A DNA stretch of 34,831 bases, from contig CAJNYD010000118.1 in assembly GCA_905331295.1 (NCBI GenBank), forward strand, positions 1 through 34,831, written 5' to 3'. This DNA comes from Rotaria socialis. Taxonomy: Eukaryota. The position numbers were made by a program, and so were the translations under genes. Under the pieces are notes generated by a model. The model was given only the letters and a program-made list of their open reading frames with translations. It made no database searches and had not been told where the DNA came from. This document shows, in pieces, positions 1 to 34,831 of this stretch. The first letter of the stretch is position 1. Each line of letters starts with the position of its first letter.

Positions 1-42
1 CAGACGGAAAATTGATGTATGTAAGTGTTTTCAGTATCACAA
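1..42 (+). promoter_or_regulatory. 3' half of the SECIS element of an upstream array copy (gene lies outside the window)
   Basis: Positions 1-121 are identical to 8781-8901, which holds the 3' strand of the SECIS after the intact deiodinase-like copy. Confidence 0.75.
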
Positions 43-1397
43 TGATATAATTCATTATTTCCAGTGCAGTTTTTATTTTATGTTTTATGTTTTTAAATTG
101 AGATTAATAAAATTCACTTGAAATACATTTAAACATAGCGTTTTCCTTTTGTGGAATGGTTGTAAGTAGAGTTGCATTCATGTTGTGTTATCTGATTGAT
201 AAAAAATACTGATGCATCTCTGCGTTTATTTTAATAATTATTTTTTCATCAGTAACGGCAGTTACGAATTAATATACATATTCCAGAAACCTAGAAAATG
301 GACTTATTCCAATTAAAATTTATCTAGTAAACGTTGCTCCGATATTAAACCATATCCATGAATCGTTTTTCACAGATCTCGAATAAAACAAATTCGGGAT
401 CCTAATTTGGATGGAATTGAAATATGAAATACAGTTACACAATTACCATTTTTATCTTCTAGAGAGATTTTGTCAGTCTATCGTGTTCTGGAACATATTT
501 GTTGATTATTCTTGTTCAAATACTAGGACAAAAACGCTTGATATAGCATTGTGGTGTGTGACATGACCTTCATAAGTATCTGTCAGCTATCAATTAAATT
601 ATATTTTACAAAACATTGTTTTTTTCTTATTGAGATTCTATTCGAACATAGGAATACCTATCAGAAGAAATGCTATTTTTCATTTGTTTAGTGTTAACTA
701 TCAACAATGAACTCATCGATTTTATCATTCTACAATTGATTTAGCTGAGATTTTCAAGTTTTTTAAATTAAATTTATACGAAAACTAGATGAAAACAACC
801 TACTGTATTTTATGAACAGAACAAGAATTTCCCCCCGCTATGGCCACGTGAGACTAGCAGTGATAGGGCGTCAATATGCAGAACAATGTGGCTCTGCTAT
901 TTACGGGCAGAACTGGTGTAGCTTCCTTATAGCAAATATTTTGAAGCAAGTCGTTCGATTGTACTTTCGGTTTGTTCATCGTGATTGGTATTGATGTTTA
1001 CATTGAGATAGTCTTATTATGGGTACTAAAAAATTAAAGCAATGATGCCAAGTTTTATTCATCTGAGATGGCAGCATATCTCTTTTCAATGATGAATGCA
1101 AGTTGTTCCGTTTAATATTGAATGAGCCGCTTTATGTTGTCCTGTGTTAAACGACGCATAAGAGTTGGAAGAAAAACACTGCGGTATTTATTTAGTTTTT
1201 CTTCTGAAAAATAAAGATTCAAACAGAGATAGCTGTACGGCCAAAAGATGGCAATATCAGTCATATAATTGTGGTGGTAGTATAGAATCTAATTGGTGAT
1301 CGGGTCTATGAAAATCTAACATATAAGCCCAGGTCGAGCGTTACGACATTATTTCTCGTGTTACTTACCAGTTTCTACGTGTTCTTCACATCCGAAC

Positions 1398-2837: not shown

Positions 2838-4143
2838 ATGGGTAATTCCGTAGCTAATGCAACCAAACCAGAAACATCATCGGTTGTTAATAACACTGCA
2901 AAACTAACTTCCTTCGTTTATAAAGACCTAGTCTTGCATGTACAAGTCATTCAACAACAAACGATTGAAGTAGCGAAATATATTGATGATCAATGCAAAA
3001 CCGATGAAAAAATACGACAAAAATTGAAATCACGTTCATTCATATTTGTTGATCCTTATGGAAACCAAACAACGCATAAGTATTTAGATCATGAAATGAT
3101 GAATACAATATTTAGCAAGTACAAAAAAAATTATGTTCCGAAATATTTACAAAAATGGATAAAACTTGGAAAAATCAATGAAACCGGTATTTCACCATTG
3201 AATGAAAATGAACTGAAATCGTCAGTATCCGAACATGATGATGGTTATCGATTTGTTACATGTGGCGAAGTCAACATATCCATTATATATCGAGAAGACG
3301 TACGACCTCAAGCATTATTACTACCAGTTTTACTGACAGACAACTTAGCAAAGATTAAAAAACAAATCCAGGAACTTACAAAACTGAAAACTATGCAATT
3401 AAAATCGCTGCTTTTAAAAGAAAATTGTCCAATGATTACAGCATCCTGGAATGAAGGTAAAACACTCAACTCTAATGTCACTGTCTTGTCATCTAAATTG
3501 TATGAAAACAATTGTATCATTATGGTTAAACTATTGGAAGAGGTAAATTAATACTTTTGTTTAATTTCACATTTAGAAATCTGTTGCTATTTGATAGAGC
3601 GCGTCTACAGAATCCAGTTCCAATTTTGATATCTTTGCAAAAACTCTTACTGGAAAGACGATCACGATTGAAGTGAATTCTTCCATGGATATATCTACTG
3701 TCAAACAACTGATTCAAGATCAAGATGGTATTCCTCCAGATCAGCAACGTTTAATATTTGCTGGAAGTCAACTAGAAGACGAGCGAACTCTCTCACACTA
3801 TAAGATCCAAAAGGAAAGTACGCTTCACTTAGTATTACGTTTGCGCGGTGGTATGTTTCATTTTACAAGTGGGCGACATAATTTCGATGAATTACCATCC
3901 GCACAAGCTGAAGCAATAAGAAACGTTCTTGTATTCAAATTTGAGCATATTGATCATTTTGAAAATTTGGCACTGCCTGATCTACAAAATTCCGTTTTAC
4001 GATCACAAGCCTTACTCTTAGAATTACCCTCTGAAATTAAACACTATTCGGCGCCCCACGATGTTCCAAATTTTAAAAATATGATATTGCCAAATGTTTC
4101 TGATGATGAAGATGAAGATAGTTATGATTTTCTCGATGATTAA
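2838..4143 (+). CDS. Array copy A1: ubiquitin-domain protein, exons 2838-3542 and 3598-4143 (~416 aa), internal LRLRGG, ends TAA TGA
   Basis: A 55-nt GT-AG intron (3543-3597) joins the two ORFs in frame. Exon 2 encodes [14 protein letters not shown]...[42 protein letters not shown] (ubiquitin fold), then ~96 aa ending in an acidic tail. A probable 5'UTR intron runs 2275-2819; its donor GAAG|GTAATT is also present in copy A2. Confidence 0.85.
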
Positions 4144-4385
4144 TGACAATCCTCACTCCAACAACAACTACAAGTATTTCAATTCTTACAACATTATGTA
4201 CTCAAGCAATTACTTATTCAAGAAGAAAAAATGAGAGTTAGTCAACCAACACAACAATTATTAGCAAGCATTGAAGATCGAAAAGACATTGATTAGATGG
4301 ATATCATCGCTGATTTACAAACTGATTTAATCAAGACATTCCTAGGTGAAGATACGACACACCATGAAATTGAATATAGTTTAAG
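4144..4385 (+). pseudogene. Remnant post-stop extension (N-terminal helical part of the deiodinase-like moiety); the rest is deleted
   Basis: The frame stays open after TAA TGA ([33 protein letters not shown]...) until TGG>TAG at the conserved DWMD motif. It is homologous to 7730-7968 and ends at the same splice donor. Confidence 0.75.
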
Positions 4386-4386
4386 G

Positions 4387-4454
4387 TAGGGGTGGGCCAT
4401 TAACAGTAATTAATGTGATGCATTAAGTTCCGCTAAAAAAATGGTCCACCCCTA
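4387..4454. mobile_element. 68-bp hairpin with TAGGGG...CCCCTA termini (minimal TIR element) replacing the deiodinase exons
   Basis: TAGGGGTGGGCCATT...AATGGTCCACCCCTA. It sits between the exon donor and the 3' half of the SECIS. No TSD. Confidence 0.6.
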
Positions 4455-6417
4455 CTGCAGTCGGAAAATTGATGTATCTAATTCTTTTCGGTATCACAAT
4501 GATATAATTCATTGTTTCGAAAGAAGTTTCATTCAGGTTTTGTATTTTGAAAGCTGGATTAATTAGTTTTACTTTTTGCTTACAAAGTAGATCCGAAAAA
4601 ATTAATCACTTTGCCATAAGTTATTTTTTCGAATAATAAGGCCGAACGGTATTCGTGAGGCGTAGAAAGAAGGGATAATTTTAGATCAGATGCGATGTGA
4701 ATGAAATATTCGTACTCATATACACAATTACTTAAGCTGATTAGAGGATGATCCTTCGCTTCTGTCTTTTCGAGAAACAGGTTTATCTGTGTTCAATTTA
4801 CTCAATGGTACGTTAGTGCAATGAAGCAATGTTGAACCAAATAGAGCACGGAGTTATGAATGCTCTTAGGTTCTTGTATCGAACATGAAAGATATCTGCC
4901 CAAGTCTCTATTGATGAAAATTTGCTCATTTGGATCATGTTTTACAGAATAATCTGTTGTATTGCTAAAATATAATCGCAACATTCTCGTGCACCTGTGT
5001 TTTTGATAATGAAATTCAGGCAATTAAGCTGTTTAAAATCAATTCGACGCAGGCCTGAGAAATCGTTTAGTTGGGATTTTTGAATTGATTAAAATAAACT
5101 GAAGTTGCAAATCAGTGAAACAATATTTCTCGTCATGCAAATTTCAATATTTACTCTCTCAACTATTTCGTTACTGATTTTTCATGATTTCAATTACTTC
5201 ATTTGGCAATATATGCATTTTTTATTCAGTGATTTTGGAATCAAATCGATTTATAACTTTGTTAACACAAGTATTCCACGGAACTTGCCTTTTTGCGCCC
5301 TCAAAACATCATTGAAACTACAATGAATAATACATGTTTAATACAAAATCTTTTCCTGGTACTAAGAACAGGAAAGATATACTAGACGTTTTGTGTAACG
5401 AATCAGTTCGTGCTATAGTTTAGTCCTCGATGAAAAATAAAGGGCTTCTGCTTTTGCGTAGATCTGCTGCTGCCTGCCGTGTATATTTGCACATTTACTT
5501 GTAACGAAGTATTCATAGAGAAATCGACAAATTATTGTCGGTACAGCTTTGAGTGTAAGAGCAAGTTGAAAAGACCCCATATACGATAAAAGATAGCACG
5601 ACGGGAGAATTCTGGATGCGAAATATGGATTTTTCCAATGAAGATTCCTAATTAATGTATTTTATATGAAATCCATGAGTCACGTTGTTTAATTTACTAC
5701 ACACGCAACGATTGTAAAGAAATTGCGAAATTTTTTCTCATTTCTTTTCACATAGCGAATAGATAAATACGAAAACATTGCAACATCAATTGAAATTATG
5801 ACGACTCTATTTCTTACTTCTTTTAGAAATGGATGTACGTTGAGAATAAATATAGCACGTGGTAAAATAGTAGCACGGATTGTCGATATTCGCCCTGCAA
5901 AAGTATATAAGGCGTATTTTTCTATCACCCGGAGAAAAACACAATTTCTATTTTCTCTGTACGACTCTAATGATTCATTTATAGGCAAGAATTTATAAAA
6001 CGTTGCTTCACGCTGACTTTTTTTCATTTCTAAACGTTTCATAACAACGAATAGGTTGCGTCGATCAATGTAAGTATGTTTATCTCGCGAAAAAATAAAT
6101 CAATACGATAATCAACCAAAGCATTAAAAATTACTAATTTCAATTTTTTATGGCGCAACTTTCATGAGTCATGTAATATTTAGTGAGAATCAGCGTATTT
6201 TAGTTTTCTGATGACTTCACTAAAGACATTAGAGAACTTTGTTCCTTTACATTGCTCGTAATTTTACATCTACCTGGCAGAATAAAAGTTAGTAACACTC
6301 ACTAATTTCAACTATTGACTTCAATGAGAATAAAACAATTTTCTAAAAATAAAACAGTTTGGCATCGCAATTCATATGTTACTATCTGTGTAGTTTCAGA
6401 TAACAATTTGTTCTACC

Positions 6418-8683
6418 ATGAGTACATCAGGTCCTCCAGAGCCTAGTTCATCAGTCGCATTGACTGCAGTAACTCCTACAGTACCAACTTCATTCGTTTA
6501 TCAAGAGTTAGTACTTCATGTACAAACCATTCAACAAAAAATGATTACCATAGCCAAATTTATTGATGATCAATGCAAAACCGATGAAAAAATACGACAA
6601 AAATTGAAATCACGTTCATTCATATTTGTTGATCCTTATGGAAACCAAACAACAAATGAATATTTCGATCATGAAACCATTAGTACAATATTCAACAAGT
6701 ACAAGAAAGATTATGTTCCGAAATATTTACAAAAATGGACAAAACTTGGAAAAATCAATGAAACCGGTATTTCACCATTGAATGAAAATGAACTGAAATC
6801 GTCAGTATCCGAACATGATGATGGTTATCGATTTGTTACATGTGGCGAAGTCAACATATCCATTATATATCGAGAAGATGTAAGACCTCAATCATTATTA
6901 CTACCAGTTCTGCTGACGGACAACATAGAAAAGATTAAAAAACAAATCCAGCAACTTACAAAACTGAAAACTATAGAATTAAAATCGCTGCTTTTAAAAG
7001 AAAATTGTCCAATGATAACAGCGTCCTGGAATGAAGGTAAAACACTCAACTCTAATGACACTCTCTTGTCATCTAAATTGTATGAAAACAATTGTATCAT
7101 TATGGTTAAACTATTGGAAGAGGTAAATTAATACTTTTGTTTAATTTCACATTTAGAAATCTGTTGCTATTTGATAGAGTGCTTCTACAGAATCCAGTTC
7201 CAATTTTGAGATCTTGGTAAAAACTCTTACTGGAAAGACGATCACTATTAAAGTGAATTCTTCCATGAATATATCTACTGTCAAACAGCTGATTCAAGAT
7301 CTAGAAGGTATTCCTCCAGATCAGCAACGTATAGTATTCGCTGGAAAACAACTAGAAGACGAGCGAACTCTCTGTGATTACAACGTTCCAAAGGAGAGTA
7401 CGATGCACATAGTGTTACGTTTACGCGGTGGTATGTTTCATTTTACAAGTGGTCGACACAATTTCGATGAATTGCCATCCGCACAAGCCGCAGCAATAAG
7501 AAATGTCCTTGTTTTTGAATTTGAGCAAACTGATAATCTCGACAACTTGCCTCCGGCTGACCTACAAAATTCCGTTTTACAAGGGCACGCTTTACTAATG
7601 GAACTGCTGTCTGAAATTAAAAACTATTCGGTGCCTCACGATGTTCCACATTTGAAAAACATTATACTATCAGAGGCTGTTGATGACGAAGATGAAGACG
7701 GTGATGAGGAAACTTCTAATGATCAGTGACAATTACCAATCCAAAAACAACTACGAGTATTTCAATTATTTGAACATGATGTACTCAAACAATTACTTAT
7801 TCAAGAAGAACAAATGAGACTCAGTCAACAAACACAACAATTATTAGCAAGCATTGAAGATCGAAAAGACATTGATTGGATGGATATCATCGCTGATTTA
7901 CAAACTGATGTAATCAAGACATTTCTCGGAGAAGATGCAACACATGATGAAATTCAATATGGTCTAAGGTAACTATTCGACTTCATTGTAATTCTAAATC
8001 TTTGTTTTTGTTTCGTTGTAGTATATTACGAAGTGCTCATCAGATATATGCAGATGACAAGGAATTTCATAATTTATCTCTTTATGTTCGACATAATCGT
8101 GCAAAAAGAGGAAATCTTCGTGTTGGTGATCCAGCTATTGACATCGACTTACTAAATATGAATGGTGAATCTGTTTCATTATTGTCTCATTGTAATCCCA
8201 ATCGACCATTATTGATTCTTGCTGGTTCATATACTTGACCACCATTTCGTGGTCTTGTACCACAACTCAATCAGCTGATGGATTCCTATCGAGATCGTGT
8301 TGATATGATCACTGTTTACATCGAAGAAGCTCATGCAGTTGATGAATGGTAAATTATTTTAGGAAGTTTACTTTTTCTATATCTGTATAATGTTTTGTAG
8401 GCCAATCGGTAGTCGAATATGTTATGTTCAACCCAAATGTGATGTTGATCGAATTCAGATTGCAAATGATTTCATTAAAGCAACTGAATATCGTATTCCA
8501 CTATTGATTGATCCAGTATCAAAAACTAATCCATTCAGTGAAGTTTATTGTCCATGGCCGATTCGATTTTATGTGATTGATCATATGAAAAAGTTGAGTC
8601 ATATAGCTGAACCAATTGAAGGCTCCTTTCCATTGGAATTGATTCGAAATGCATTAGGTGATGCCATTCAACAATGTCAATAA
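6418..8683 (+). CDS. Array copy B1 (intact): ubiquitin-domain / deiodinase-like selenoprotein fusion. Exons 6418-7122, 7178-7968, 8022-8348, 8401-8683; in-frame TGA at 7727-7729 and 8236-8238 (Sec). 418 aa if stopped at the first TGA, 701 aa fully recoded
   Basis: Three GT-AG introns (55, 53, 52 nt) keep one frame. The ubiquitin domain ends LRLRGG (7427-7432). Deiodinase-family motifs are [14 protein letters not shown] and [12 protein letters not shown] (vertebrate DIO: RPLVLNFGSCTUPPF, YIEEAHxSDGW), plus [13 protein letters not shown] downstream. Probable 5'UTR intron 6070-6399. Confidence 0.8.
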
Positions 8684-8725
8684 AGTGTTTTTGTTGTTCT
8701 CAGAAATAATGATGATAAAATATTT

Positions 8726-8822
8726 TTGTGATATTGAAAATTTTAAAATGATATTTTTTGTTGAAAGCGTTTTAATGATGCAGACGGAAAATTGATGTAT
8801 GTAAGTGTTTTCAGTATCACAA
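8726..8822 (+). promoter_or_regulatory. Eukaryotic type II SECIS element
   Basis: Folded by hand. Helix I: TTGTGATATTGAAAA (8726-8740) / TTTTCAGTATCACAA (8808-8822). Core: ATGAT (8748-8752) / TGAT (8793-8796). Helix II: ATTTTTTGTT / GACGGAAAAT. Unpaired AAA at 8764-8766. Apical mini-helix GCGTT / GATGC. Confidence 0.85.
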
Positions 8823-11016
8823 TGATATAATTCATTATTTCCAGTGCAGTTTTTATTTTATGTTTTATGTTTTTAAATTGAGATTAATAAAATTCACTTG
8901 ATATATATATTCAAGGGTAATATTTACCTTCTGTTGAATTTCTTTTTATGATATCTGACAGGTTAAAAATTGTTGTACCTCGGCTTTTATTGTAATAATT
9001 TCTTTTTCAACAGCAAGGGCAGTGAAGAATAAGAACTTAAATGAATATTTTGGCAACATAGAAATGGACTTTTTCCAATTAAAATTTATCTGGTAAACGT
9101 CTCTCTAACATTGAACCATATCCATGAAACCTTTCTTTTAGAGATCTCTTGAATAAAACAAGTTCGGTATCCGAACCTGGATAGAATTAAAATATGAAAG
9201 ACAGTTACGCATTGACGATGTTTATCTTCTAGTGAGACCGTGACATTGTATATTTTTGTGGGACATACTAGCTTATTGTTCTTGTACTTATTTCTGGTCA
9301 ATTAGTATGACGAAAGCTCTCGATATAGCATTGTGGTATGTATCCTGATATCCATAAGTATCTATCAGCTAGCACTTAGATCGCGCCTTGGAAAATATAT
9401 TGTTTCTCTTATTGAAATTCTGTTCGAACTCCTTTTAACTATTGTTGTATTTGTTATGATTTGTAAAAGCGTTTTTTGTGAATTAGTTCGTTGATTATTG
9501 ATAATTATGTTAGAGTAAAACCATTTTGTAATGTTTTCGATATAATGACTGAATCGAGTTGTTATTGAAATTTAAACCAGACATTATCGGGACTACAACA
9601 AATAATATAGATTCAATAAGAAAAATTCCTGATGCTAAAATATCACCTGACATGTGCCAACTAAGAAAAAGAAACATTATAATCAAGAATAGTTTCATAA
9701 AACTACGGATATTATTCAGTTTCTCTTTTTGATAACATACAGACCATTTGCCTGAAACCATGCTACTCTTAGATGAAAACTCAGCTTACTATGTTTCAAT
9801 GAAAAAAATAAAAGCTTTTTGTCTCTATGACCACGCGAGAGTAGCAACAATAGGGTGTCCATACGTGAAACGATACGATTCTCCTCTTCGCACCCACACT
9901 TGGTATCGCTTCCTTATAGCAAATATTTTGAAGCAAGTCGTTTGAGTTTACTTTCCATATGTTCATCGTGGTTGATTTTCGTCCTTACATCGAAATACTC
10001 TTAGTATGGGTGCCCACTTATTGAAGCCATAGTTCAATTTTTATTCGTCTTATATGGTAAAAAATCTCTTTTTAATGATGAGTGGAAGCTGTTCCGTTTA
10101 CTACTAAATGAGTGTGCCATGTTGTTCGTTTTTAAATGGCACACAAGAGTTATAAGAAAAATACTACGATATTTATTCATTTTCTCTTCTGAAAAATAAA
10201 GGCTCCAAAATATAATTCTAGTAGCAGTATAGAATTTCATGTGTGAATTGGTTTCTGAAAAACTAAGATGCGAGTGGTGAAAATGTAAGTATACAGTTTT
10301 TACAATCAGTTTTCGAGAGTCCCCATTTTTGGAGATCACGTCATTTAATCTTTATGACGCATTGTCTTATCGGTAAAAGAAAAAATCCAACCTTGTCTCC
10401 ACTTAAAAAAATCCTTATGCAAAGTATATGAGAGCTGTTGTTACTTATTTTCTTTCATTCGTGCGCGACTCATAGTAACAAGTGAGAACATATTTTCCAT
10501 AGATAGAGAAAGAATGCGTTCGACAAATAGCTTGTGAATTGCCCACCATTATCACGAACTCATTCCCAACAACTTTGAAGGTAATTATTGACTAGTTTAG
10601 TCTTCAATTAGATTTTTACCAATAACAATGCGTTTAGCATGCTTTTGAGACCTAATCATTGCAATTCGTTATAAAAGGTGATTCATTCGTATTGACGAGT
10701 TTATGACACTACTTCTACTATCATTAAGATAAAAAGGAATATGTTTGTCCATAAAAGAAAATGCAGTTTGAATTTTCAATGGGTCATTGGAATAAATTTT
10801 CTCATTTTAAAAACTGAAATTTTTTGAAAAAACAACATCTTACTGTCCCTATAGATGAAACAAACCTCAAGTTTCCGAATTTATTTTGGAGAAAAAGATG
10901 ACGGTTAATAATCTTATGTAGCGACAATAACTCATAACATGTGTTAAAAGACTTTAAAAACAAAATTCATCTAGTTCAAATTCTATATTTACTTTCAGAT
11001 ACCCACTGGTTCAAAG

Positions 11017-12561
11017 ATGGACAATTCTGTCAGTGATGCAACCACATCAAAAGCAACATCGACGGCTGTTATTTCTAAATTGTCAACTGCCTTTGTTTAT
11101 GAAGATTTAGTCTTTCATGCACACGCCATTCGACAACAAAATATTGAAATTGCGACACTTATTGATAATAAATATAAAAATGACAAGAAAAAACGTAAAG
11201 AATTGAAATCTCGTTCATTAACATTTGTCGATCCCTATGGAAATCCAACAGCTAATGCATATTTCGATCATGAAACCATCAATACAATACATAGCAAGTA
11301 TAAGAAAGATTATGTTCCGAAATATTTACAAAAATGGATAAAACTTGGAAAAATGAATCAAAACGGTATTTCACCATTTAATGAAAATGAACTCAAATCG
11401 TCTGTATCCGAACATACTGATGGTTTTCGATTTATTACCTACGGCGAAGTCAACATATCGATTATATATTCTGAAAATAGACGACCTCATTCATTTATAC
11501 TGCCAGTTCTTCTGACTGAGAATATAGAAACCTTACAAGACAAATACAAAAACTTCAAAAATTAAACAATATCAAATTGAAATCACTAATTTTAAATGCA
11601 GATACTCAAATAAGTACAGCATGTTGGAATGAAGGTCAAAGACTCAAATCAGATGGCACTATCTTCTCATATAAATTATATGAAGACACTTGTATCATCA
11701 TGGTAAAAGCATTGGAAGAGGTAAATTAATAATTTCGTCTACTATTTCAGTAAAAAATAACTTTTATTTTTATAGAGCGCTTTCGGAGAAGCCTTGTTGA
11801 ATTATCAACTTTTTGTGAAAAATCTCACTGGAAAGACAATCATTATTGAAGTGAATCCTTCCATGGATATATCTACTGCCAAACAACTGATTCAAGATAT
11901 GGAAGGTATTCCTTCAGATCAACAACGTTTAATATTTGCGAGTAAAAAATTAGAAGACGAGCGAACTCTCTCCGATTACAACATCCAAAACGGGAGTATG
12001 TTTCACATAGTATTATGTTTACGCGGTGGTATGTATCATTTTACAAGTGGTCGACACGATTTTGATAAAATACCAAGCGAATCAGCCGAAGCAATAAGAA
12101 ATGTTCTTGTATTCGAATTTGAGCATACTGATCATCTTGAACATTTGGCACCGGTTGATGTACAAAATTCTGTTTTACGATCACAAGCCTTACTCTCAGA
12201 ACTACTCTCTAAAATTAAAAACTATTCCGTGTCAAGCGATGTTCCGAATTTGAAAAATATTATATTGCCAAATCTTATTGATAATGAAGATAAAGATAGT
12301 GATGATTTGTTCGATGATAAATGACAATCCTCGCTCCAAAAACAACTACGAGTATTTCAACTATTACAACATGATGTACTCAAACAATTACTTATTCAAG
12401 AAGAAGAAATGAGACAGTCAAGAAACACAACATTTATTAGCTACTATTGAAGATCGAAAAGACATTGATTGAATGGATATCATAGCTGATATACAAACTG
12501 ACTTAATCAAGACATTCCTAGGTGAAGATGCAACACACGATGAAATTCAATATGGTTTAAA
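11017..12561 (+). pseudogene. Array copy A2: frameshifted ubiquitin-domain gene, truncated before the deiodinase core
   Basis: Exon 1 (11017-11720) is 704 nt versus 705 nt in the other copies, from a 1-nt deletion near 11537; the homologous sequence resumes in another frame. Intron 11721-11775. Ubl ends LCLRGG. TGA CAA TCC at 12322. A 2-nt deletion lies near 12415. Homology stops at the donor at 12562. Confidence 0.75.
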
Positions 12562-12564
12562 GTA

Positions 12565-13648: not shown

Positions 13649-15999
13649 CCCAAGACACTCGATCCTGCCTCCGGATCCTGCCGGAACCCATCGGAACCAG
13701 CACCGGATCACTCCAGAAGCCGGCACCTTTCCCACTCAAATCTGGCAGGATCCGACAGGGATTTCGCCGGAATCTCTGCTCCCGGAATCCGGGCCGGAAA
13801 TCAAAGGAAAATGATCCGGTCGTTTCCTGCCGGATAACACAGCCGAACATTGTCGAAACCGATCGACGCCGACTACCGGATGATGCCGGGTTCACAAGGG
13901 TTTCACCACATATTTCGCCGGATTCCATCAGATTCCCGTGACAAGGACCACATAAAGAATCTCTCATAAAAGCGTTCTTCAATCACAAGATGGATCAACT
14001 GTACTCTTCAAGAAAACGCACAGCACCCCCCACAGCGAACACTATGAGAAAACTTGTAACCCAGAACGAACAACATCTGACTCACCTATATACACCCTTT
14101 GAATGATCCAGAACCATCCTACAATACATCGTATTCATTAAACTAATTATAAACTCGTTTACTGCGTCATCTTCTTGCATTTCCGTTTTTGGAAACATCG
14201 CTCCTAACATCATTTTGAACCGATCGAAATAATTAACAATTCCTGGAAAATCCTTCTAAATATCATTCCGGAACGTCACCACCATTTTTTTCATCAATAA
14301 ATATCATTCTAAACACATTTAAAGAGTCGTCCTTTCGCACACTAATTCAGCGAAAATCGCTCCAAACATCATTTTGCACCCATCGAAATCGTTGATAATT
14401 CACGGAAATTGGATCTGAATGAAACTCCAGGCCGCTCATCACTAACTTTTTCATGCAGTATTAACATTTTAAAAGTAAAAAACCAGGGATCTTATTCATC
14501 AAAACTTTTAAAAAAATTACACCACGCATCATTTTCCATCAACCCAAATATGGCATCAGTCGTAATGAATCGTTCAGATAATCATTCTCGATGGTTCCAA
14601 CTTACCTTTTCTTCATTAAACACGATTCTAAGCATCTTTCATTACAGAACTAACCGCACTTTCCTTCGACGAAAATCACTCCACAGCTTAACCTCGACTT
14701 ATCGAAAAATTCACTAAGATACGGAGATTCAGTCAGACAACGATTCTAGGTGTTTCGAACTTATCTTTTCTTCATGAAACAGAATTCTAAGCATCTTTCA
14801 TTACGGTTGCAGCCATAGTTTCGTTCGACGAAAATCACTCCACAGCTGAACGTGGACTTATCGAAAAATTCACTAGGATATTGAGAATCGTTCAGATAAT
14901 CATTCTCGATGGTTCCAACTTACCTTTTCTTCATTAAGCACGATTCTAAGCATCTTTCATTACGGAACTAACCGCACTTTCCTTCGACGAAAATCACTCC
15001 ACAGCTTAACCTGAACTTGTCGAAAAATTGACTAAGACATTGAGAATCGTTGAGATGAGCATTCTCGATGGTCCGAGCATAGCCTTTTTGCATGGAACAG
15101 GATTTTGAGCGACGCTCGAAAGCGGTTTGATGGGATGGTGAATTTTAATATTATGTGTAAGCAACATTGGAGCGTCCGCAAAAGCGTTTGTTGGTGATTT
15201 GAAATGATGCTTTTGGCGTTGTCAGACGGAGGAAGCACGTGTGTAACATGTTTTAAATTTTATCGAATTGCATAGAGGAAGAAGAGTCTGTGTACATGGG
15301 AAGCTTTGCTTGCCCGGAGTAGTCATTAATGGTTGTGGATTTGGGATTTGACGAGGAGTGGGGCGTAGAATTAAGTTATACTGACTGGAGTTATGATAAA
15401 CGAGTTGAGTGATATTCGTTCGGGTGGATAACTTCGTGTAGGATTAGTAAATACTTATTCATGTTGCTCATGTAGACTGATGGTTTGTATGTAAGCTATT
15501 GGATGAACGATAATTTTTGATTCGTGCTTTTCATCGGTTTTGTGAGCTGTTAACTACGGGTCGGAATGGATTATAGGATCTTCTTTTAGCATCTGGTAAT
15601 TAGTTGTAGATATTGTCTGTCAGATCTGTGCTTTTGTAAGTTGCATAACCCGGTGAGTAGAACCGTTCGGTTCTGATATGATCCGATTGGTTCCGGTGAG
15701 ACTGATTAAGCTGCATCTACCATGAAATCTAGCGTCATGCGCCACGGCGGCTTCCGGTAAAGTTTCGTCACCGGATATTGTGGGATCACGTCGTATACGG
15801 CCAAATCGTATTATATGACCTGATATTTTCCGGCAATGTAAATCTGGCCGGTTCTCGGAGAATCTGGCCACCAGATTTCATAAGAAAACAAAGAAAATCG
15901 TCGGAATTCACCAGAAATTAGCCAAACGAATCCGGTCACCATGTGACATCGGAATTATAACCCGTCCGACAAGAACCGACTGATCGATAATGACCTGGG
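13649..15999. mobile_element. Non-autonomous DNA transposon with CCC...GGG termini (CMC/EnSpm-like, tentative)
   Basis: Imperfect TIRs CCCAAGACACTCGATC / GATCGATAATGACCTGGG, flanked by ATA on both sides. Both ends have GC- and CCGG-rich subterminal regions. No transposase ORF. Confidence 0.6.
14568..15085. repeat. 159-bp tandem repeat, ~3.3 copies, inside the transposon
   Basis: Units start at ~14568, 14727, 14886 and 15045. They share ATTCTAAGCATCTTTCATTAC and TTCGACGAAAATCACTCCACAGCT. Units 1 and 3 are nearly identical. Confidence 0.85.
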
Positions 16000-21812: not shown

Positions 21813-22514
21813 GTACATGGTCAATTCATATGCAATCAATGTACTGTTTTTAATACGGCAGAAAGAGATGATTGGTTGAAGCATGTACGAAAATATCATT
21901 ACTCAGCATTCGTCCGTTTAGTCCGGGAGAGAGAAGGTTGTCCAACGGCTCTTAATGATCAACCACTTGCCAATATATCAGACAATGAAGTAATATGAAT
22001 GCTTAAAACATTTTAATAAAAAAAGTGCTTGGATATTTTTTGTATCGTTTAGGATGATGATGATGATGATGATGAAACGGCTAATATTGGTACACCACGT
22101 TTTGAATTTGATGCTTTAACAGCTAGCACAGATTCACATCGTCTTCCTTCTCAACGACGATTTCAACCAAGTCGTCCAGCATCGGGTGCAATTCCACGTG
22201 ATTTTATTCCTCAACGTCAGTTTCAACCAAATTGTCCACCACCTAATATAAATCAATATTGTTTTATTCCTCAACAACAATTTCAACCAAATCATGCGAC
22301 AACAGGTACAATTCCACGTGATTTTATTTCTCAACAATTGGAACAAAATCATCATGCAACAGCAAGCACATATCCAGGTGATTTTATTTCTCAACAACAA
22401 TTGCAGTTTGGTAATACAACAGCTGATCCACTTCAACAATCTCAAGTTCGTGATAAGACTATCAAGAAAGTTGGGAAATGTTTTCTCCCTGCGTTTATGA
22501 GACTTTCTGAATAA
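21813..22514 (+). pseudogene. Gene fragment: C2H2-type zinc-finger exon plus acidic / Q-P-rich repeat exon
   Basis: HGQFICNQCTVFNTAERDDWLKHVRKYH (C-x2-C-x13-H-x4-H). A GT-AG intron (21990-22052) joins it in frame to DDDDDDDE...(DFIPQxQFQPN)n. The 5' structure is unclear. Confidence 0.5.
22140..22420 (+). repeat. 60-bp (20-codon) coding tandem repeat, ~4.5 copies
   Basis: TTTTATT(C/T)CTCAAC recurs at about 22202, 22262, 22322 and 22382. The frame stays open throughout. Confidence 0.8.
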
Positions 22515-24378: not shown

Positions 24379-26289
24379 GTGCCTATCCTCTATTGACACC
24401 CACGCCCTCAAGGTTAATTCCATTGCGCATATCATACTTAACTTTATTTTCCTCATATGAGCATTTTCCTCGAAAGAATTTCTTGTTCCTCATTCAAGTT
24501 TTTCATTACACAAAAAGGTTAAAGTTTATGATGTATTACAATATAACACAATAACTCCCAGTCTCTCCACGACTATTGCAAATACCTCTTCAACCTTTGG
24601 GTATGGGTGTGACAAGAAGAACTATATCCATACCCACACCCACACCCTATCTGCCTTTACAATCGATATTAAGATGCAGCATTAATAAGTTGTAATGAAT
24701 CTGAACCACAATTTTTATGTTTCGTTTGAGATACAACAATACCAGTTTCATTTAGACACTTGGAATGTGACTTAAAAAAAACTACTATTTCTTTTTGTCG
24801 ATTTTACACCCTAGTCATGATATTTTTCAAACGAGTGTTAAGAAAGATGATACTATTTGGATTGATGATATTTTCCAACTTAGCAAATTTAACATTGACA
24901 TGTGTTCACTTACGGCACACATAATGAAAGATTCAAAAAGAAATTAATATCGAGAATAGGACATGTAGGTGGTGGTTCATCTTTTACATCTTGATAGAAG
25001 AAAGTAGCGATGAACTATTTCAAATATCAATATATCACATACTCGATATTCTCTATTCTTAGTCAATGATGTGCTTATTTGTAAACATTCATCTTTTTAT
25101 TCTACTAGCAAACTATGTTGCATTTTATGTCTTGTTCTTATCTAACTTTTAATACTTTAATAAGCTAGTAATTCAATAATAGATTATTTAATCCAACTGA
25201 GATAATTTTAGTTTCTGTTCGAGAGAGAAAATATTAAAATCTAAAACAAAATTCTATGATCAAAATCTTGATGCAAAGTTATAGTGCTCTGTCAAATAAT
25301 CGAGACTAAAATCTGGTAATATTGTTTTATAAATATGATTATGATCCACTTAAATTTAATTATGATTTTCAAACATTATTGATTGAATGATAACTGGGAG
25401 GAGGCATTCTGCTGGATGAAATGGAATTGTTTAAGGTGAAATCATTTTTTCATTCGATAGAATCTATCGAGACCAAAGATAGTCTACAATCGTATTATAT
25501 TGTTGAATTTTTTCTTTTCTAGTTATACTCATTATGTCGGCTTTGTTTTTATATGAAGATTCATCTTTAAAATAATCGAATGGCTAAGTTTCAGCTAAAA
25601 CCTTTTGTACTCAAACATTTTTTCACTTTGCTAAAAGTCACAGGATATCAGCATCGGTGTGCGACAGAGATGTGACTGATTCAGTTAAAAAAACACGAAC
25701 CAATTTCATCATTGTTGTGTAGATACTCATAAAAGGTTCACACCCACAACGGAACAAAAATAAAAAGCATTTTATTGACTACAGATACAAAGCAATATGT
25801 GAATCTAGTTACATTTATTAATTTTCCATTTATTTCTTTTTTAGTATGCTGCGGTAAACGTTCACTTGCAAATGGCAAGGCTTCAATATCACCATGCGAC
25901 GTTTCTGATCTTCGTTGCCGTGATTGGCTTCTTTTACAGTCAGCTTGTGAAAAATCTATTTCTGTTCTTCATTAAGTTTTATTAAAAACTATTGGTAAGA
26001 TTTTTCTATTTAGTAAATAATTTTATATATTGCATTTTTGGAATTATCTGAATCAATTAATATTCATAATACTTGCGGTAATGAATTAAAATTAATTGAA
26101 AGTAAGACAGTCATCGAAGCGGCTGAAATATTATTTCATGCTATTATTATCGACAAAAACATTAATTAATATAATCTATAAATTTTTATCATATTTATGA
26201 TATTCAAAAAAACAAACAAACAAAGACGGATGCATTTTCATAACGAAATCATATTTTAAAGATCTCATGTTGTTTTGTTCATATTTTAG

Positions 26290-26951: not shown

Positions 26952-27504
26952 CTATCGATACTGATGGTTTAGCTTGTCAAAGTCAAGATCAGCGAATATG
27001 GAATGGTGCTCGTTCAACTAAAGGAGTAAAAGGCAAAGGTAAATTGTTATTATTTACTTTGGTTTTCATATTTATTGTGTTATATGTTAGGTAGATATTA
27101 TTTTGAAATAACTCAAACTGATCCCAATGGTATTGCACGTGTTGGTTGGTCAGTACCAATAGCAATAATCGATCTTGGAACTGATAATCAAGGTTTTGTT
27201 TATGGTGGTACAGGAAAAAAGTCATTTGCAAAACAATTTGATGGTTATGATGAAACATTTGGTGTTAATGACACTATCGGAAGTTTCATTGATCTTGACC
27301 GAATGAAAATTCGATTTTTTAAAAATGCTTCGTTTAAATATCATCTTTTCATATAGAAATAATCTTCGATGTTTAGGCAAAGATCTTGGCCATGCATTTG
27401 ATCTTCCTCGTCCATTACAAAAGCATACATTTTTTGCACATGTTTGTTTGAAATCTACAGATGTTCGAGTATATTTAGGTGCAGAACCATTTAAAGGAAC
27501 ACCA
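26952..27504 (+). pseudogene. DDX1: DEAD-box helicase DDX1 SPRY-domain fragment (3 exons)
   Basis: AIDTDGLACQSQDQRIWNGARSTKGVKGK|GRYYFE...RVGWS...DLGTDNQGFVYGGTGKKSFAKQFDGYDETF...FFKN|GKDLGHAF matches the DDX1 SPRY insertion. The donor at ~27328 is CT instead of GT. No helicase core. Confidence 0.8.
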
Positions 27505-27714: not shown

Positions 27715-30625
27715 TAGGGGTGTACAGTTCACGCTCATGAGCGCTCATTTGAGCGTGAGCGAGAGTGCTTGTATGCCATCGAAATACATGATCGATTCTG
27801 ATCATTTGTATCTAGTCTATTCTTCGAAAAGCTGCATTCATAATTTTTGTGCCTTTGGTACCCCTCAGGTATCGTGAATACTATTTTTTTTATTAATGAG
27901 CCAGAATCATATATATTTGAAGGTTTACTGGTGGCGATGACGAATATTATCATCAGGCCTCTAAAAAGACATTCATTCTTGAAATATCTCTAATCACTCT
28001 TTGAACTCATTCCTCATTATTTTGGCTCTCCCAGCATTATTATTCACTAAAATTCAACGGAAAGCATATTTTCTAATTCATAATTTTGCGCTCTATATGA
28101 ATCTGAACTTATTACAACCCTACGCTGTAGTATTTGGAAACAGAATAGTGAGTTCAAGCAAAAGTTCATTTTTTCTTTAAGAAATAGAATCTAGTCCCTA
28201 TGATGGTTTATGAAGTCACTGGCACTGCAACTAAAAATTCGGACTATACGTGTAATTTTTCCAGCTCTATCGATTGGTAACTTAAAAAAAGAATTAAAAT
28301 GATGTGAAACAAGTCGAGGACTCGGACGTCAAGTGAAAGAAGGCCTTTTTTACTAGATTTATCTCTATATGTTTGATTTTTAGCGTGAAATTAGTCTTTA
28401 TGGGACCTAAAACTGGGGGCATATATTTCGCTCTTCAAGCGCTATTGATTGATAGTCGCGAAAAGATAAAATCAGGTATAACAGAGGAAAATTTCGAAAA
28501 TACTGGAATATTCAGGTTAATTCAAGGCATTCTGTGAGTTTTTCTATAATTGATTGAATGATGATGGGCTTTTCAGAAAGAAAGCCTTAGGTTTTGAGCG
28601 ACCTTGCTATGTCTCTATTAGTTGATGATGGTGAGTTTTACACAAATCAGAGCGAATATGGAAGGAAGTGGATGAGATTCTCAATTGTTATCACGTCTGA
28701 TATAAGTTATACGGTGAGTTAGTGGTAAATTGCTCCTAGAGAACAAATAAGTGCAAAAAACAGTATTTGGGCTCGCTTGTATAATGGATTTGAAAAAGAA
28801 AAGATTATATTACCAACTGAATAAATTTGAGAATTCCAAGAAGTCATCTGTAACTGTTGTCTGATTGCGAGCAAGAGGTGAAGAAAAGGTGTAATTGTAC
28901 ATGATGAAGAAAAGCATGGAGATATCATAAGAGGCTCCGTTCAATTTCATCAAATCATATTCGGTATTGGGTTATATCTTTTTCCCCAACCATTAAAAAG
29001 ATAGTTTGAATTAAAAGAAATACATAATATGTTCACCAAAATTAATAATATCTGGACGCGAATGTTTTATATTGATATGAATAGTAAATCTGTCTCGTTT
29101 TGATACAGTTACATAGCTACTTCAAAAGGCATAGATAAAATATATCATTATGCTCATGGTTTTCCCCCATTATCCTCTGCTCTTAAGGGTAATGATCCTA
29201 ATAATTTTCGATGTATGCTAGATTAAGAGTAAGTTTAGTTCTACTTTCCGATAAAAATTACTGTTTAATGTGTAAAATGCTAGTGATGTTCCAGTGATCA
29301 GTTGATTGCGAGTGAATTTTCAAGACATTAGTCATATATGAGATCCAAGAAAGACAAACAAAAAAATAACAGTAATGATGACTATCACATATGATCATAG
29401 TTTGAAGTGCTAATCAATTGGAGTTAACGAAGAAGTTACCTTAGTTTTTATCAGGTATATAATCATATGATGTTATATCCTAATATAATTCATGCAGTCC
29501 TACGTTGCGTGAATGAGGCTACATGCTGACAGGAAATTACAAAGGAATCATTACTTTGGTCAATTCGAAATCCTGGCATGTTCCTGGGCACCTTCAAACT
29601 CACAAAAACCTAGATAAATATAGTACAAACTGAAAATAATCTCACAGGTTTCAACATTTGACGTAGTGGTACCCTGTTTCTTTTTCTCTCGAGTTTTCGA
29701 TCAAGAGAGGATAGAAAATAGAACATTTCGTGCGCAAATTGTGTTTTCAAAACACTAATTTGACGCAGAAAACTATGCCAGTATAGCCAAACTCAACAGA
29801 GATACGTCTGAGTTAAGTGTATTCCATTGAGTGTGCTCTTCCACGATGTTCACATCATTTAGATAAAGATCATCGAACCAAAGCTTATCAAACAGCTAAT
29901 TTACAAGAGATTCGGATGTTTATATTGATGCTCTCTAATTCAATAATATTTATTTTAGGTGATCTTTTTTTCGGCCATATTTGTTTCGACGAAGACAAAC
30001 GCTTTCTATATTTTTTTACTTCTCACCTTGTTATATCTGCTCTTCTACATTTTTGTAACTACCAATAGAAAGATGTCGAAAAATTACATTGATGGCTCGA
30101 ATCTTATGTTGTAATAGGACTGACTTCACAAACGTTCATTGGTACAAAATTCGATATGTTAAAGAAAATGCTAATTTCTGCTGTGGAATCACTAGTTCCT
30201 TTGCAAATCTTACAGTTTGTGATTGTAAAAAGTTTATATTCGCATAGAACCCAAAATTCTGAGATAGAAATGGTGTTTTTCGCTGAATTTTAGTTAATAA
30301 TTATGCTAGGAGGGTCAAATAATCAGGAAAGCGGGGCAACTAGTGATTAGAGCTATTTCACAGATCAAAGCTTTTTGAGAGTTCTTACGATGATATTCGT
30401 CATCAGCACTCCTAAATTTTCAAACTCCTACTATTTTGGCTCGTCAACAAAAAAACAATTGTATTCACGATACCTGAGGGGGACCCACCTACAAAAAGTT
30501 CGAATATTTTTGTTCCAGGAATAGGCTAGATAAAAATGACCAGAAGCGATCGCGTACTCTATCCCAAAGAAACGCTCACGCTCATGAGCGCTCATATGAG
30601 CGTGAGCGTGAGTTGTACATCCCTA
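27715..30625. mobile_element. Non-autonomous hAT-type transposon (2.9 kb) inserted in the right palindrome arm
   Basis: Termini TAGGGGTGTACAGTTCACGCTCA / TGAGCGTGAGTTGTACATCCCTA, 8-bp TSD GTTCTGCA (27707-27714, 30626-30633), GCTCA/TGAGC subterminal repeats, and ~400 bp of imperfect inverted homology. No recognisable transposase. Confidence 0.9.
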
Positions 30626-32082
30626 GTTCTGCACCTAAATTGACACGAACATCTGTAGATTTCAAACAAACATGTGCAAAAAATGTATGCTTTTGTAATG
30701 GACGAGGAAGATCAAATGCATGGCCAAGATCTTTGCCTAAACATCGAAGATTATTTCTATATGAAAAGATGATATTTAAACGAAGCATTTTTAAAAAATC
30801 GAATTTTCANTTGTTTGTTTTTTTGAATATCATAAATATGATAAAAATTTATAGATTATATTAATTAATGTTTTTGTCGATAATAATAGCATGAAATAAT
30901 ATTTCAGCCGCTTCGATGACTGTCTTACTTTCAATTAATTTTAATTCATTACCGCAAGTATTATGAATATTAATTGATTCAGATAATTCCAAAAATGCAA
31001 TATATAAAATTATTTACTAAATAGAAAAATCTTACCAATAGTTTTTAATAAAACTTAATGAAGAACAGAAATAGATTTTTCACAAGCTGACTGTAAAAGA
31101 AGCCAATCACGGCAACGAAGATCAGAAACGTCGCATGGTGATATTGAAGCCTTGCCATTTGCAAGTGAACGTTTACCGCAGCATACTAAAAAAGAAATAA
31201 ATGGAAAATTAATAAATGTAACTAGATTCACATATTGCTTTGTATCTGTAGTCAATAAAATGCTTTTTATTTTTGTTCCGTTGTGGGTGTGAACCTTTTA
31301 TGAGTATCTACACAACAATGATGAAATTGGTTCGTGTTTTTTTAACTGAATCAGTCACATCTCTGTCGCACACCGATGCTGATATCCTGTGACTTTTAGC
31401 AAAGTGAAAAAATGTTTGAGTACAAAAGGTTTTAGCTGAAACTTAGCCATTCGATTATTTTAAAGATGAATCTTCATATAAAAACAAAGCCGACATAATG
31501 AGTATAACTAGAAAAGAAAAAATTCAACAATATAATACGATTGTAGACTATCTTTGGTCTCGATAGATTCTATCGAATGAAAAAATGATTTCACCTTAAA
31601 CAATTCCATTTCATCCAGCAGAATGCCTCCTCCCAGTTATCATTCAATCAATAATGTTTGAAAATCATAATTAAATTTAAGTGGATCATAATCATATTTA
31701 TAAAACAATATTACCAGATTTTAGTCTCGATTATTTGACAGAGCACTATAACTTTGCATCAAGATTTTGATCATAGAATTTTGTTTTAGATTTTAATATT
31801 TTGTCTCTCGAACAGAAACTAAAATTATCTCAGTTGGATTAAATAATCTATTATTGAATTACTAACTTATTAAAGTATTAAAAGTTAGATAAGAACAAGA
31901 CATAAAATGCAACATAGTTTGCTAGTAGAATAAAAAGATGAATGTTTACAAATAAACACATCATTGACTAAGAATAGAGAATATCGACTATGTGATATAT
32001 TGATATTCGAAATAGTTCATCGCTACTTTCTTCTATCAAGATGTAAAAGATGAACCACCACCTACATGTCCTATTCTCGATA

Positions 32083-32568
32083 CACAGGAACAGAACTGCT
32101 ACAAAATATACTTAGATTTCGATTTCAAAATACAAAACATCTTGAACGTTTTCCCATGATTCAGTTACAAAATGCTATTTCAGAAGGGCATGCTTTGTTC
32201 TCTCAATTATTTTCCGAAGCTCAAAACTATAGAGTATCAAGCGATGTTACAAATTTAAAAAATATTATATTGCCAAATGTTACAGATGATCAAGATGAAG
32301 ATAGTGATGATTTTTCCGATGATGAATGACAATTACCAATCCAAAAACGACTACGAGTATTTCAATTATTACAACATGATATACTCAAACAATTACTTAT
32401 TCAAGAAGAACAAATGAGACTCAGTCAAGAAACACAACATTTATTAGCAAGCATTGAAGATCGAAAAGACATTGATTGGATGGATATCATCGGTGATTTA
32501 CAAACTGATTTAATCAAGACATTTCTCGGAGAAGATGCAGCACATGACGAAATTCAATATGGTTTAAG
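32083..32568 (+). pseudogene. 5'- and 3'-truncated array copy (post-ubiquitin linker, TGA CAA TTA, helical extension)
   Basis: ELLQNILRFRFQNTKHLERF...DDFSDDE* is homologous to the post-GG domain. The frame stays open after TGA (32327-32329) to the donor at 32569. The 5' end abuts the palindrome end. Confidence 0.8.
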
Positions 32569-32569
32569 G

Positions 32570-32636
32570 TAGGGGTGGGTCGTTAACATTAACTAATGTC
32601 ATTAATTAAGTTGGGTTAAAAAGTGGCCCACCCCTA
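32570..32636. mobile_element. Second copy of the TAGGGG...CCCCTA hairpin at the same deletion junction
   Basis: TAGGGGTGGGTCGTT...AGTGGCCCACCCCTA, followed by the SECIS 3' half remnant as at 4455. Confidence 0.6.
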
Positions 32637-34625
32637 ATGCAGTCGGAAAACTGATGCATGCAATTCATTTCAGTATCACAATGATATAATTCATTATATT
32701 TCGAAAAAAGTTGCATTCAGGTTTTGTATTTTGAAAGCTGGATTAATTAGTTTTACTTTTTGCTTACAAACTAGATCCGAAATAATTAATCACTTTGCCA
32801 AAAGTTATTTTTTCGAATAATAAGGCCGAACGGTACTCGTGAAGCTTAGAAAGAAGCGATAATTTTAGCTCATTTGGATCGTGTTGTACAGAATAATCTG
32901 TTGTGTTGCTGAAATATAATCGCAACACCCCCGTGCACCTGTGTTTTTGATAATGAAATTCAGACAATTAAGCTGTTTAAAATTAATTCGATGCAGGCCC
33001 GAGAAATCGTTGAGTTGAGATTTTTGAATTGATTAAAATAAAATGCAGTTGCAAATCAGTGAAACAATATTCCTCGTCATGCAACTTTCAATACTTACTC
33101 TCTCAATTATTTCGTTACTGATTTTTCATGATTTTAATTAATTGATTGTTGCTCGCAGCGATTTTGAAGTAAAATCGATTCATAACTTCGTCAACACAAG
33201 CATTCCACGGAAAATGCCTTTCTGCGCAGTCAAAACATTATTGGGACTACGATGAATAATACATGTTTAATACAGAATATTTTCCTGGTATTACTAAGAA
33301 CAGGAAAGATATACTAGACGTTTGGTTTAACGTTAATAATAAGACAATGAACACAATATTGAGAACATGATTGTTTGTGATTAGAAGTAATCGTTTTTCG
33401 GTGTGACATTCTTCTTTACACTGTACGTATCATCCTTATTTTGTATCGAAAAGAAAGTGTTCTTTGATCTGTTTGGTGCTTTTATTAATTCTTACTTAAA
33501 CGGGTCAGCTCGAGCTATAATTTAATGCTTTTGTGTAGGTCTACAGCTGCCTGCTGTGTATATTTGCACATTTACTTGCGACGAAGTATTCATAGAAAAA
33601 TCGACAAATTATTGTCGGTACAGCTTTGAATGTAAGAGCAAGTTGAAAAGATCCCAAATACGATAAAAGATAGCATGAGGGCAAAATTCTGGATACGAAA
33701 TATGGATATTTTCAACAATTGTGAATGTTCTTGAATTCTCTACTTGCTTTAAAAAAAGAGCTGAAAATTCTTCGACAATGCTATCGTTTAGATAAAATCC
33801 TAATGATGAAATTACAAAAGTATAGTATAAAAAATATTTTCCAATGAAGATTCCTAATTAATGTATTTTATATGAAATCCATGAGTCACGTTGTTTACTT
33901 TACTACACACGCAACGATTGTAAAGAAATTGCGAAATTTTTTCTCATTTCTTTTCACATAGCGAATAGATAAATACGAAAACATTCCAACATCAATTGAA
34001 ATTATGACGACTCTGTTTCTTACTTATTTTAGAAATGTATATAGGCTGAGAATAAATATAGCACGTGGTAAAATAGAAGCACGGGTTGTCAATATTCTTC
34101 CTGCAAAAGTATGTAAGGCGCATTTTTCTATCACTCGGAGAAAAACGCAATTTCTATTTTCTCTGTACGACTCTAATGATTCATCTATAGACACTAATTT
34201 ATAAAACATTGCTTCATGCTGACTGTTTTTCATTTCTAAACGTTTCATAACAACGAATAGGTTGCGTCGATCAATGTAAGTATGTTTATCTCGCGAAAAA
34301 ATAAATCAATACGGTAATCAACCAAAGCATTAAAAATTACTAATTTCAATTTTTTATGGCGCAACTTTCCTGAGTCATGTAATATTTAGTGAGAATCAGC
34401 GTATTTTAGTTTTCTGATGACTTCACTAAAGACATTAGAGAACTTTGTTCTTTTACATTGCTCGTAATTTTACATCTACCTGGCAGAATAAAAGTTAGTA
34501 ACACTAAATAATTTCACCTATTGACTTGAATTAGAGCAAAACAATTTTCTAAAAAAAAAAATTTGGCATTGCAATTCACTTATATGTTACTATCTGTGTA
34601 GTTTTAGATAACAATTTGTTTTACC

Positions 34626-34831
34626 ATGAGTACATCAGGTCCTCCAGGGGATAGTTCATCAGTGGCATTGACTGCCGTAACTCCTACGATGCCAACTTCA
34701 TTCGTCTATAAAGAGTTAGTACTTCATGTACAAACCATTCAACAAAAAATGATTACCATAGCCAAATTTATTGATGATCAATGCAAAACCGATGAAAAAA
34801 TACGACAAAAATTGAAATCACGTTCATTCAT
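34626..34831 (+). CDS. Array copy B2, 5' part (runs off the window)
   Basis: ATG AGT ACA TCA GGT CCT CCA... is highly similar to 6418 onward. The upstream 32637-34625 matches 4455-6417. Confidence 0.8.
   Translation, partial: MSTSGPPGDSSSVALTAVTPTMPTSFVYKELVLHVQTIQQKMITIAKFIDDQCKTDEKIRQKLKSRSF

Follow-up and report, generated by a model that had tools for sequence, protein, structure and literature searches.

Introduction

Readthrough of the tobacco mosaic virus (TMV) type occurs at UAG followed by CARYYA (CARNBA in yeast), and in a mammalian reporter CARYYA gave readthrough of about 15%, with UGA about as permissive as UAG and UAA much less so (PMC4132726). The gene described below, from the bdelloid rotifer Rotaria socialis, resembles this type, together with its relatives, in having a stop plus CARYYA, in using UAG and UGA and not UAA, in showing no conserved structure 3' of the stop and in carrying a long in-frame extension, here an enzyme; it differs in being a spliced animal host gene, the extension of which would need a second and different recoding event, the insertion of selenocysteine (Sec). 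Deiodinase (DI)-like selenoproteins are reported from invertebrates, protists, fungi and bacteria in bioRxiv 10.1101/314781, and the rotifer enzyme is like them in its GSxT-U-PPF and YIEEAH motifs, its PF00837 score above the cut-off and its candidate SECIS in the 3' UTR, a likeness that does not imply identity with the subfamily of that preprint. Unlike them, it has upstream of it a helical domain for which the PDB offers no match, a putatively leaky stop and three ubiquitin-like domains (Ubl), and the second residue ahead of its Sec is Tyr. The passing of two in-frame stops on a single mRNA is also a feature of the Anopheles and Drosophila double readthrough genes, from which selenoproteins were left out in PMC5100048, whereas the two rotifer events are likely of different mechanisms. 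Hymenopteran SPS1-UGA likewise shows conserved non-Sec readthrough, a viral-type hexamer and sense replacement in some lineages, but its UGA is an old Sec site whose SECIS is lost (PMC4561486), whereas the putatively leaky stop of the rotifer gene is separate from, and upstream of, a likely Sec codon that is kept.

The upstream part of the gene is like ISG15, FAT10 and ubiquitin-fusion precursors in its predicted tandem ubiquitin folds, followed by LRLRGG and then an extension; it differs in having three folds, the first two 11–17% identical to their structural matches, and the likeness is one of sequence and predicted fold. In Euplotes, the code of which is reassigned, UGA in mRNAs is read as Cys or Sec depending on its position, and the rotifer gene would likewise hold two meanings of UGA within one message; in the rotifer, however, TGA also terminates genes (L005), and the junction stop can be TAG. 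A literature search on rotifer readthrough, on bdelloid and Adineta selenoproteins and on readthrough–selenoprotein fusions, with subscription journals and supplements outside its scope, found no description of the gene or of the recoding series, which within these bounds agrees with an earlier reading of the sequence alone (the sequence-only reading) that had proposed an undescribed system. Every part has precedent.

Results

Structure of the Gene and Its Upstream Protein

The window, meaning the whole stretch of 34,831 nucleotides analysed here (assembly GCA_905331295.1, contig CAJNYD010000118.1, forward strand), is AT-rich eukaryotic DNA with introns of 50–60 nt. Copy 2 of the gene (6418–8683, + strand) has four exons, 6418–7122, 7178–7968, 8022–8348 and 8401–8683, the joined frame of which meets stops at codons 419, 571 and 702, so that the products by frame are 418 aa, up to the first TGA, and 701 aa, with both TGAs passed (Table 1). 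As the sequence-only reading had it, CAA TTA comes directly after the TGA at 7727–7729, the reading frame past this TGA is open for 80 codons within the same exon, no ATG is met in frame before codon 29 past it, and the Ubl frame is spliced in frame to the deiodinase-like exons, all three introns being GT..AG joints in transcript contigs. Public Rotaria socialis proteins match copy 2, P0007 at 100% over the tail and P0147 letter for letter over the C-terminal part of the enzyme.

Table 1. Positions of the features of copy 2 and of the other gene copies in the window.
Feature	Position	Strand	Evidence
Likely spliced-leader acceptor AG	6392..6393	+	17-nt non-genomic 5' end joined here (X1 loose end)
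Exon 1 CDS: long helix and two degenerate ubiquitin-like folds (predicted)	6418..7122	+	AlphaFold, Foldseek
Intron 1	7123..7177	+	GT..AG joint in X1, X3, X4
Ubiquitin domain, LRLRGG end at residue 320	7211..7432	+	PF00240 E 8e-24; alignment to ubiquitin through di-glycine
98-aa helical tail, acidic tract at end; end of short form	7433..7726	+	
Junction stop TGA (codon 419) and CAATTA hexamer	7727..7735	+	
Selenoenzyme helical N-terminal domain, without conserved start codon	7730..7968	+	dN/dS, distant homologues, P0008 model
Intron 2	7969..8021	+	Joint in X1, X2, X3
Exon 3, deiodinase-like thioredoxin fold, GSYT-TGA-PPF, putative Sec codon 571 at 8236–8238	8022..8348	+	PF00837
Intron 3	8349..8400	+	Joint in X1, X2
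Exon 4 CDS, terminal TAA	8401..8683	+	
SECIS-like element: AUGA, 10-pair helix, AAA, apical stem, UGAU	8748..8796	+	Rfam SECIS_1, own pattern
Poly(A) addition site	8921..8926	+	A-tail loose end in X1
Copy 1: TAA before TGA, TAG in extension, without enzyme exons	2838..4385	+	
Copy 3: frameshifts in exon 1 and extension, further TGA, without enzyme exons	11017..12562	+	
Copy 4: 5'-truncated, TGA CAA TTA, extension open, without enzyme exons	32054..32568	+	

Two degenerate ubiquitin folds are predicted within exon 1: the best of five AlphaFold models had a mean pLDDT of 76.8, its best Foldseek matches were di-ubiquitin, ISG15 and the OASL di-Ubl (E 2e-7 to 1e-6, identity 11–17%), and Pfam gave no match above cut-off for this exon. 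The third Ubl is a canonical ubiquitin domain, and its closing GG is kept in 60 of 70 pattern rows, a count in which four rows were mis-located by the pattern. Tandem ubiquitin folds and a terminal di-glycine are features matching ISG15/FAT10-like modifiers. From ubiquitin biology, cleavage after LRLRGG is expected, and the protein is probably cut after residue 320.

Transcripts Spanning the Junction

X1–X4 were taken as cDNA on the grounds of their GT..AG joints and, for X1, a poly(A) tail, no run being recorded as RNA; the transcript evidence consists of assembled contigs and not of single reads, and contigs may join paralogues or lose rare forms or edits. The X1 contig of 1585 nt spans 7232–8921, has introns 2 and 3 spliced out and carries its poly(A) tail at 8926, and since 79 of its 735 exon 2 letters differ from copy 2 it represents a relative or paralogue of that copy. 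The X4 contig covers 7685–7941 without any difference from the window among those listed. X1 and X6, which carry different organism codes and come from different studies, each span 7620–7900 unbroken with 16 and 19 differences, none of them in 7718–7748, and neither shows a joint or a loose end at 7729–7814, from the stop to the first Met, where a separate start would have spoken against the sequence-only reading. A transcript with the TGA unspliced, the check proposed in that reading, was found in X1, where it is spliced at other sites, polyadenylated and unedited at the TGA, and the stop is likewise present in the X4 and X6 contigs. The 17-nt non-genomic 5' end in X1 is presumably the bdelloid spliced leader, and the AG to which it is joined a likely acceptor. 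A 10-A loose end at 6946 was rejected as a poly(A) site, the position being an A-rich genomic spot within exon 1. The junction stop lies 239 nt 5' of an exon junction (7729–7968); a stop so far upstream usually invites nonsense-mediated decay, and transcripts were nevertheless assembled.

As the sequence-only reading had anticipated for standard annotation, in public bdelloid models the gene is broken up or its junction gapped, and the selenoprotein is missed. In all ten public models chosen for the tree (Rotaria, Adineta and others) an intron-like gap, as seen at the protein level, takes away some 20 codons around the junction, and we read these gaps, from the sequences, as the work of predictors meeting a stop. 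Taken at face value they would imply a minor splice that excises the stop, for which an AG at +43 with a frame-keeping GT upstream is available in six of the seven related loci introduced below; but this AG is absent from window copies 2 and 4 and from X1 and X6, L006 and copy 4 offer no frame-keeping candidate, and the donor positions are not conserved. The codons that would be skipped (7–14) have a dN/dS of 0.25 and do not vary in length, unlike intron 2, which measures 47 to 125 nt, and no joint skipping the first TGA occurred among the transcript contigs of the five runs compared, which makes such splicing exceedingly unlikely.

The Junction Stop and Its Context in Related Loci

A metagenome scan gave 376 pattern stretches, seven of which encode the extension; all seven were used (L001–L007), and copy 2 of the window is counted as the eighth locus. 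All seven related loci have an in-register stop at the junction (TAG in three, TGA in four, TAA in none), with exon 3 behind it and the frames open on both sides. The contexts are TAG CAA TTA in L001 and L005; TAG CAA CTA in L007; TGA CAA TCA in L002–L004; and TGA CAA TCT in L006, so that, counting the window, CAA-Y is present in 8/8 loci and CARYYA in 7/8, the CAATCT of L006 being the exception. Codon +2 swaps between Leu and Ser with the Y-Y-A shape kept (TTA in three, CTA in one, TCA in three and TCT in one of the eight loci), codons 3–6 past the stop drift almost neutrally (dN/dS 0.86), and L001 and L007 have CAA also 5' of their TAG.

As controls, CARYYA follows the stop in none of three stand-alone paralogues without the enzyme in L005 (TAG GAA, TAA AAC, TGA AAT), and CAA follows the terminal stop in none of four fused genes. 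As a gauge of chance, CARYYA stands at 0.29% of the + strand positions of the window, where it follows three of 870 TGA triplets (two of them being copies 2 and 4) and none of 426 TAG triplets. The distribution over the loci, TAG or TGA and not TAA, is the stop preference described for CARYYA in PMC4132726. The extension is 74–93% identical among the eight loci and L002–L004 are close kin, so the independent cases are fewer than eight; the tree requires two TGA/TAG changes, of which well-supported branches force only one. CAA is moreover the usual Gln codon (67/71) and Gln at +1 is retained in four of the five sense versions described below, so the hexamer may owe part of its conservation to constraint on the protein or to shared ancestry.

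A search for conserved structure in the first 120 nt 3' of the stop found none (consensus −0.97 kcal/mol, five pairs, none compensatory), a result that also bears on A-to-I editing of UGA or UAG to UGG (Trp) in part of the transcripts. Both stops are one A-to-G step from UGG, TAA, which is two steps away, occurs in 0/8 loci and one homologue has Trp, all as such editing would have it; the absence of a conserved local duplex speaks against it, as do the X1, X6 and X2 contigs, none of which has A>G at 7729 (contigs can hide rare edits), and readthrough already accounts for the hexamer, so editing is scarcely credible.

The sequence-only reading had left the decoding of codon 419 between readthrough and Sec, and suggested that the junction might be selenium-dependent. 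Its readthrough alternative stands; Sec as the general mechanism does not, because the junction is TAG in 3/7 loci and the residue in sense versions is Ser, Arg or Trp and never Cys (0/5), and selenium dependence as a general design falls with the same TAG loci. A second Sec, inserted through the same SECIS, would find its TGA in the window and in 4/7 loci and a SECIS-like element 913 nt downstream of codon 419 in the spliced mRNA, but that codon follows an acidic tract, outside the catalytic motif, and we consider this explanation very unlikely, although Sec may add to the decoding of codon 419 in TGA alleles.

Sense Versions, Coding Constraint and the First Methionine

Five protein models hold an amino acid in register at the junction: Ser in P0001, P0132 and P0092; Arg in P0018; and Trp in P0054. 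In P0132, a model of 579 aa from Didymodactylos carnosus, an unbroken N-terminus continues through Ser at the junction to GSYT, an open fusion. P0054 and P0092 may be decayed copies. The sense versions do not form one clade (p-AU 0.009), which suggests that exchange between stop and sense at the junction occurred repeatedly. Relatives follow one or the other of the courses that the sequence-only reading had allowed for, either keeping the stop and CARYYA (7/8 loci with the window) or having an amino acid there (Ser, Arg and Trp proteins).

The extension has neither stops nor indels in 8/8 loci, and the other two frames hold 4–10 stops per locus. Selection past the stop (7730–7813), which the earlier reading had foreseen, is borne out by a pooled dN/dS of 0.30 over codons 1–28, with pN<pS in 28/28 pairs; codons 29–79 give 0.20, and subsets of codons 7–28, upstream of Met29, give 0.25 (codons 7–14) and 0.16. 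Distant homologues without ubiquitin (29–42% identity) align upstream of Met29, most of them terminating at GSx[ST], where the Sec position lies, and in the model of the homologue P0008 the residues upstream of Met29 are predicted as a confident helix (pLDDT 79–90). Because these upstream codons are constrained, aligned in distant homologues and helical, and Met29 is variable, the enzyme depends on codons for which there is no conserved start.

This evidence bears on the reading that the stop is a true one and the message dicistronic, the enzyme arising by reinitiation or from an internal or trans-spliced start at Met29. Met29 is ATG in 8/8 DNA loci, many public models begin there and bdelloids trans-splice a 23-nt leader (PMC1925144). 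Yet among 26 proteins the position is Met in nine, Ile in nine and Leu in eight, purifying selection acts on the codons before it, which can be aligned in distant homologues, X1 and X6 show no loose end at 7729–7814, and a start at Met29 leaves the continuity of the frame and the open fusions unexplained; it is accordingly very improbable.

The Deiodinase-Like Enzyme Part

With its TGA read as C, exon 3 scores 59.4 bits against PF00837 (cut-off 27), and the TGA of codon 571 aligns with the Cys of T-C-PPF in the DIO2 and DIO3 structures 9h48 and 4tr3; TGA is kept at this position in 5/5 loci that reach it. From PF00837 and its motifs the enzyme is classed as deiodinase-like, and on the same comparative grounds Sec is likely inserted at codon 571. 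The domain upstream of the enzyme is charged and helical by inspection, with no PDB match by Foldseek; vertebrate DIO carry an N-terminal membrane anchor.

The SECIS-like element is the sole match in the window, on both strands, of our own pattern, which was composed after the elements had been seen and which matched 1, 4 and 0 of 500 shuffles. It recurs in L005 and L006 (3/3 loci reaching it) with two compensatory pairs, A-U/G-C and U-A/C-G. In Rfam it scored 18.4 bits with SECIS_1, under the gathering score of 35, and since L001–L007 gave no Rfam SECIS match at E up to 10, the element in the other loci rests on alignment and the own pattern; plain folding z-scores were −0.04, −2.47 and −0.98, that of the window being −0.04.

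Eight distant homologues (P0095, P0098–P0101, P0112, P0114 and P0116) share the helical domain, lack ubiquitin and all end at the Sec position; to judge by their sequences they apparently belong to a DI-like selenoprotein subfamily that is widespread and whose N-terminal domain has no counterpart in the PDB. Scans of viral and prokaryotic contigs gave relatives in 0/55 and 0/96 pattern stretches. The Rotaria models P0121, P0123, P0150, P0152 and P0160, and also P0008 and P0011, have Trp or Arg at the Sec position and are perhaps inactive or non-Sec paralogues, and the Trp of JGI proteins may merely reflect the code used.

Such paralogues, and the broken or truncated state of three of the four window copies, are what one would expect if the stop were a nonsense mutation and the enzyme part dead or accidentally translated. 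Conservation largely refutes this: selection past the stop is purifying, the Sec TGA is retained in every locus that extends to it and the SECIS-like element covaries wherever it is reached, and, judged from these comparisons, the chance of decay is next to negligible.

Other Copies and Surroundings of the Window

TGA-CAA does occur in all four copies, at 4144, 7727, 12322 and 32327 (TTA in two, TCC in two), as the sequence-only reading had reported, but its use as an argument from conservation is weak, three copies being truncated and two of these also broken; the four are tandem copies 80–89% identical and therefore not independent support, and copies 1, 3 and 4 show no selection on the stop signal. 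Copies 1 and 4 share a breakpoint at the intron 2 donor (4386–4688, 32569–32872) and resume in sequence like that from 8779 onward, so that just the 3' half of the SECIS region is retained. Window positions 1–647 resemble the 3' flank of copy 2 and 34626–34831 hold the first codons of another copy, so the array extends past both window edges. In L005 (1285–8224) a tandem array has at least five paralogues, one of which alone has the enzyme and a CARYYA stop, three ending in other stop contexts.

An inverted duplication of 1272 nt (24948–26219 against 30811–32082, 99.6% identity) adjoins the single N of the window at 30810 and may be a mobile element or an assembly join. Exon fragments at 27030–27487 and 30050–30809, partly duplicated in inverted order, seem to resemble the SPRY region of the RNA helicase DDX1. 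Tandem repeats of about 159 nt lie at 14194–15110, and 60-nt repeats within a Gln/Pro-rich open frame at 22150–22405.

Discussion

The series proposed by the sequence-only reading, one mRNA with forms of 418 and 701 aa and two recoding events, is backed by transcript contigs, outside loci and naturally open fusions. We consider it quite probable that TMV-type readthrough at codon 419, followed by Sec at codon 571, on one spliced mRNA gives both products. Most ribosomes would end at codon 419 and release the 418-aa ubiquitin-like protein; a minority would pass TGA-CAATTA using an ordinary near-cognate tRNA, at a rate that would hold the amount of enzyme to a small, constant share of that of the Ubl protein, and these ribosomes would insert Sec at codon 571 with the help of the 3' SECIS and so complete the 701-aa fusion to a deiodinase-like selenoenzyme. 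Deubiquitinases would then cut after LRLRGG, leaving a 320-aa three-Ubl protein and either the 98-aa tail or a 381-aa tail-selenoenzyme. Much more tentative, and to our minds rather doubtful, is a wider reading in which the gene would be a virus-style polyprotein in a host genome, with leaky stop, Sec and LRLRGG cleavage in series setting how much of an ISG15-like three-Ubl modifier is made relative to a selenoenzyme, and in which the leaky stop would have been a capture route for a once stand-alone, possibly horizontally acquired enzyme gene placed behind the Ubl gene without promoter or start of its own.

If the probable reading is true, readthrough at codon 419 and Sec at codon 571, this is an animal gene using the plant-virus CARYYA signal under selection, and its mRNA would require non-Sec readthrough ahead of Sec insertion, TGA alleles carrying two meanings of UGA. 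The natural TGA, TAG and sense alleles and the stand-alone paralogues would make the rules that separate a leaky UGA from a Sec UGA testable. In bdelloids, where public models split the gene or gap its junction and the selenoprotein was overlooked, a blind spot of annotation is exposed, and the gene would illustrate a route to gene fusion by way of a retained leaky stop.
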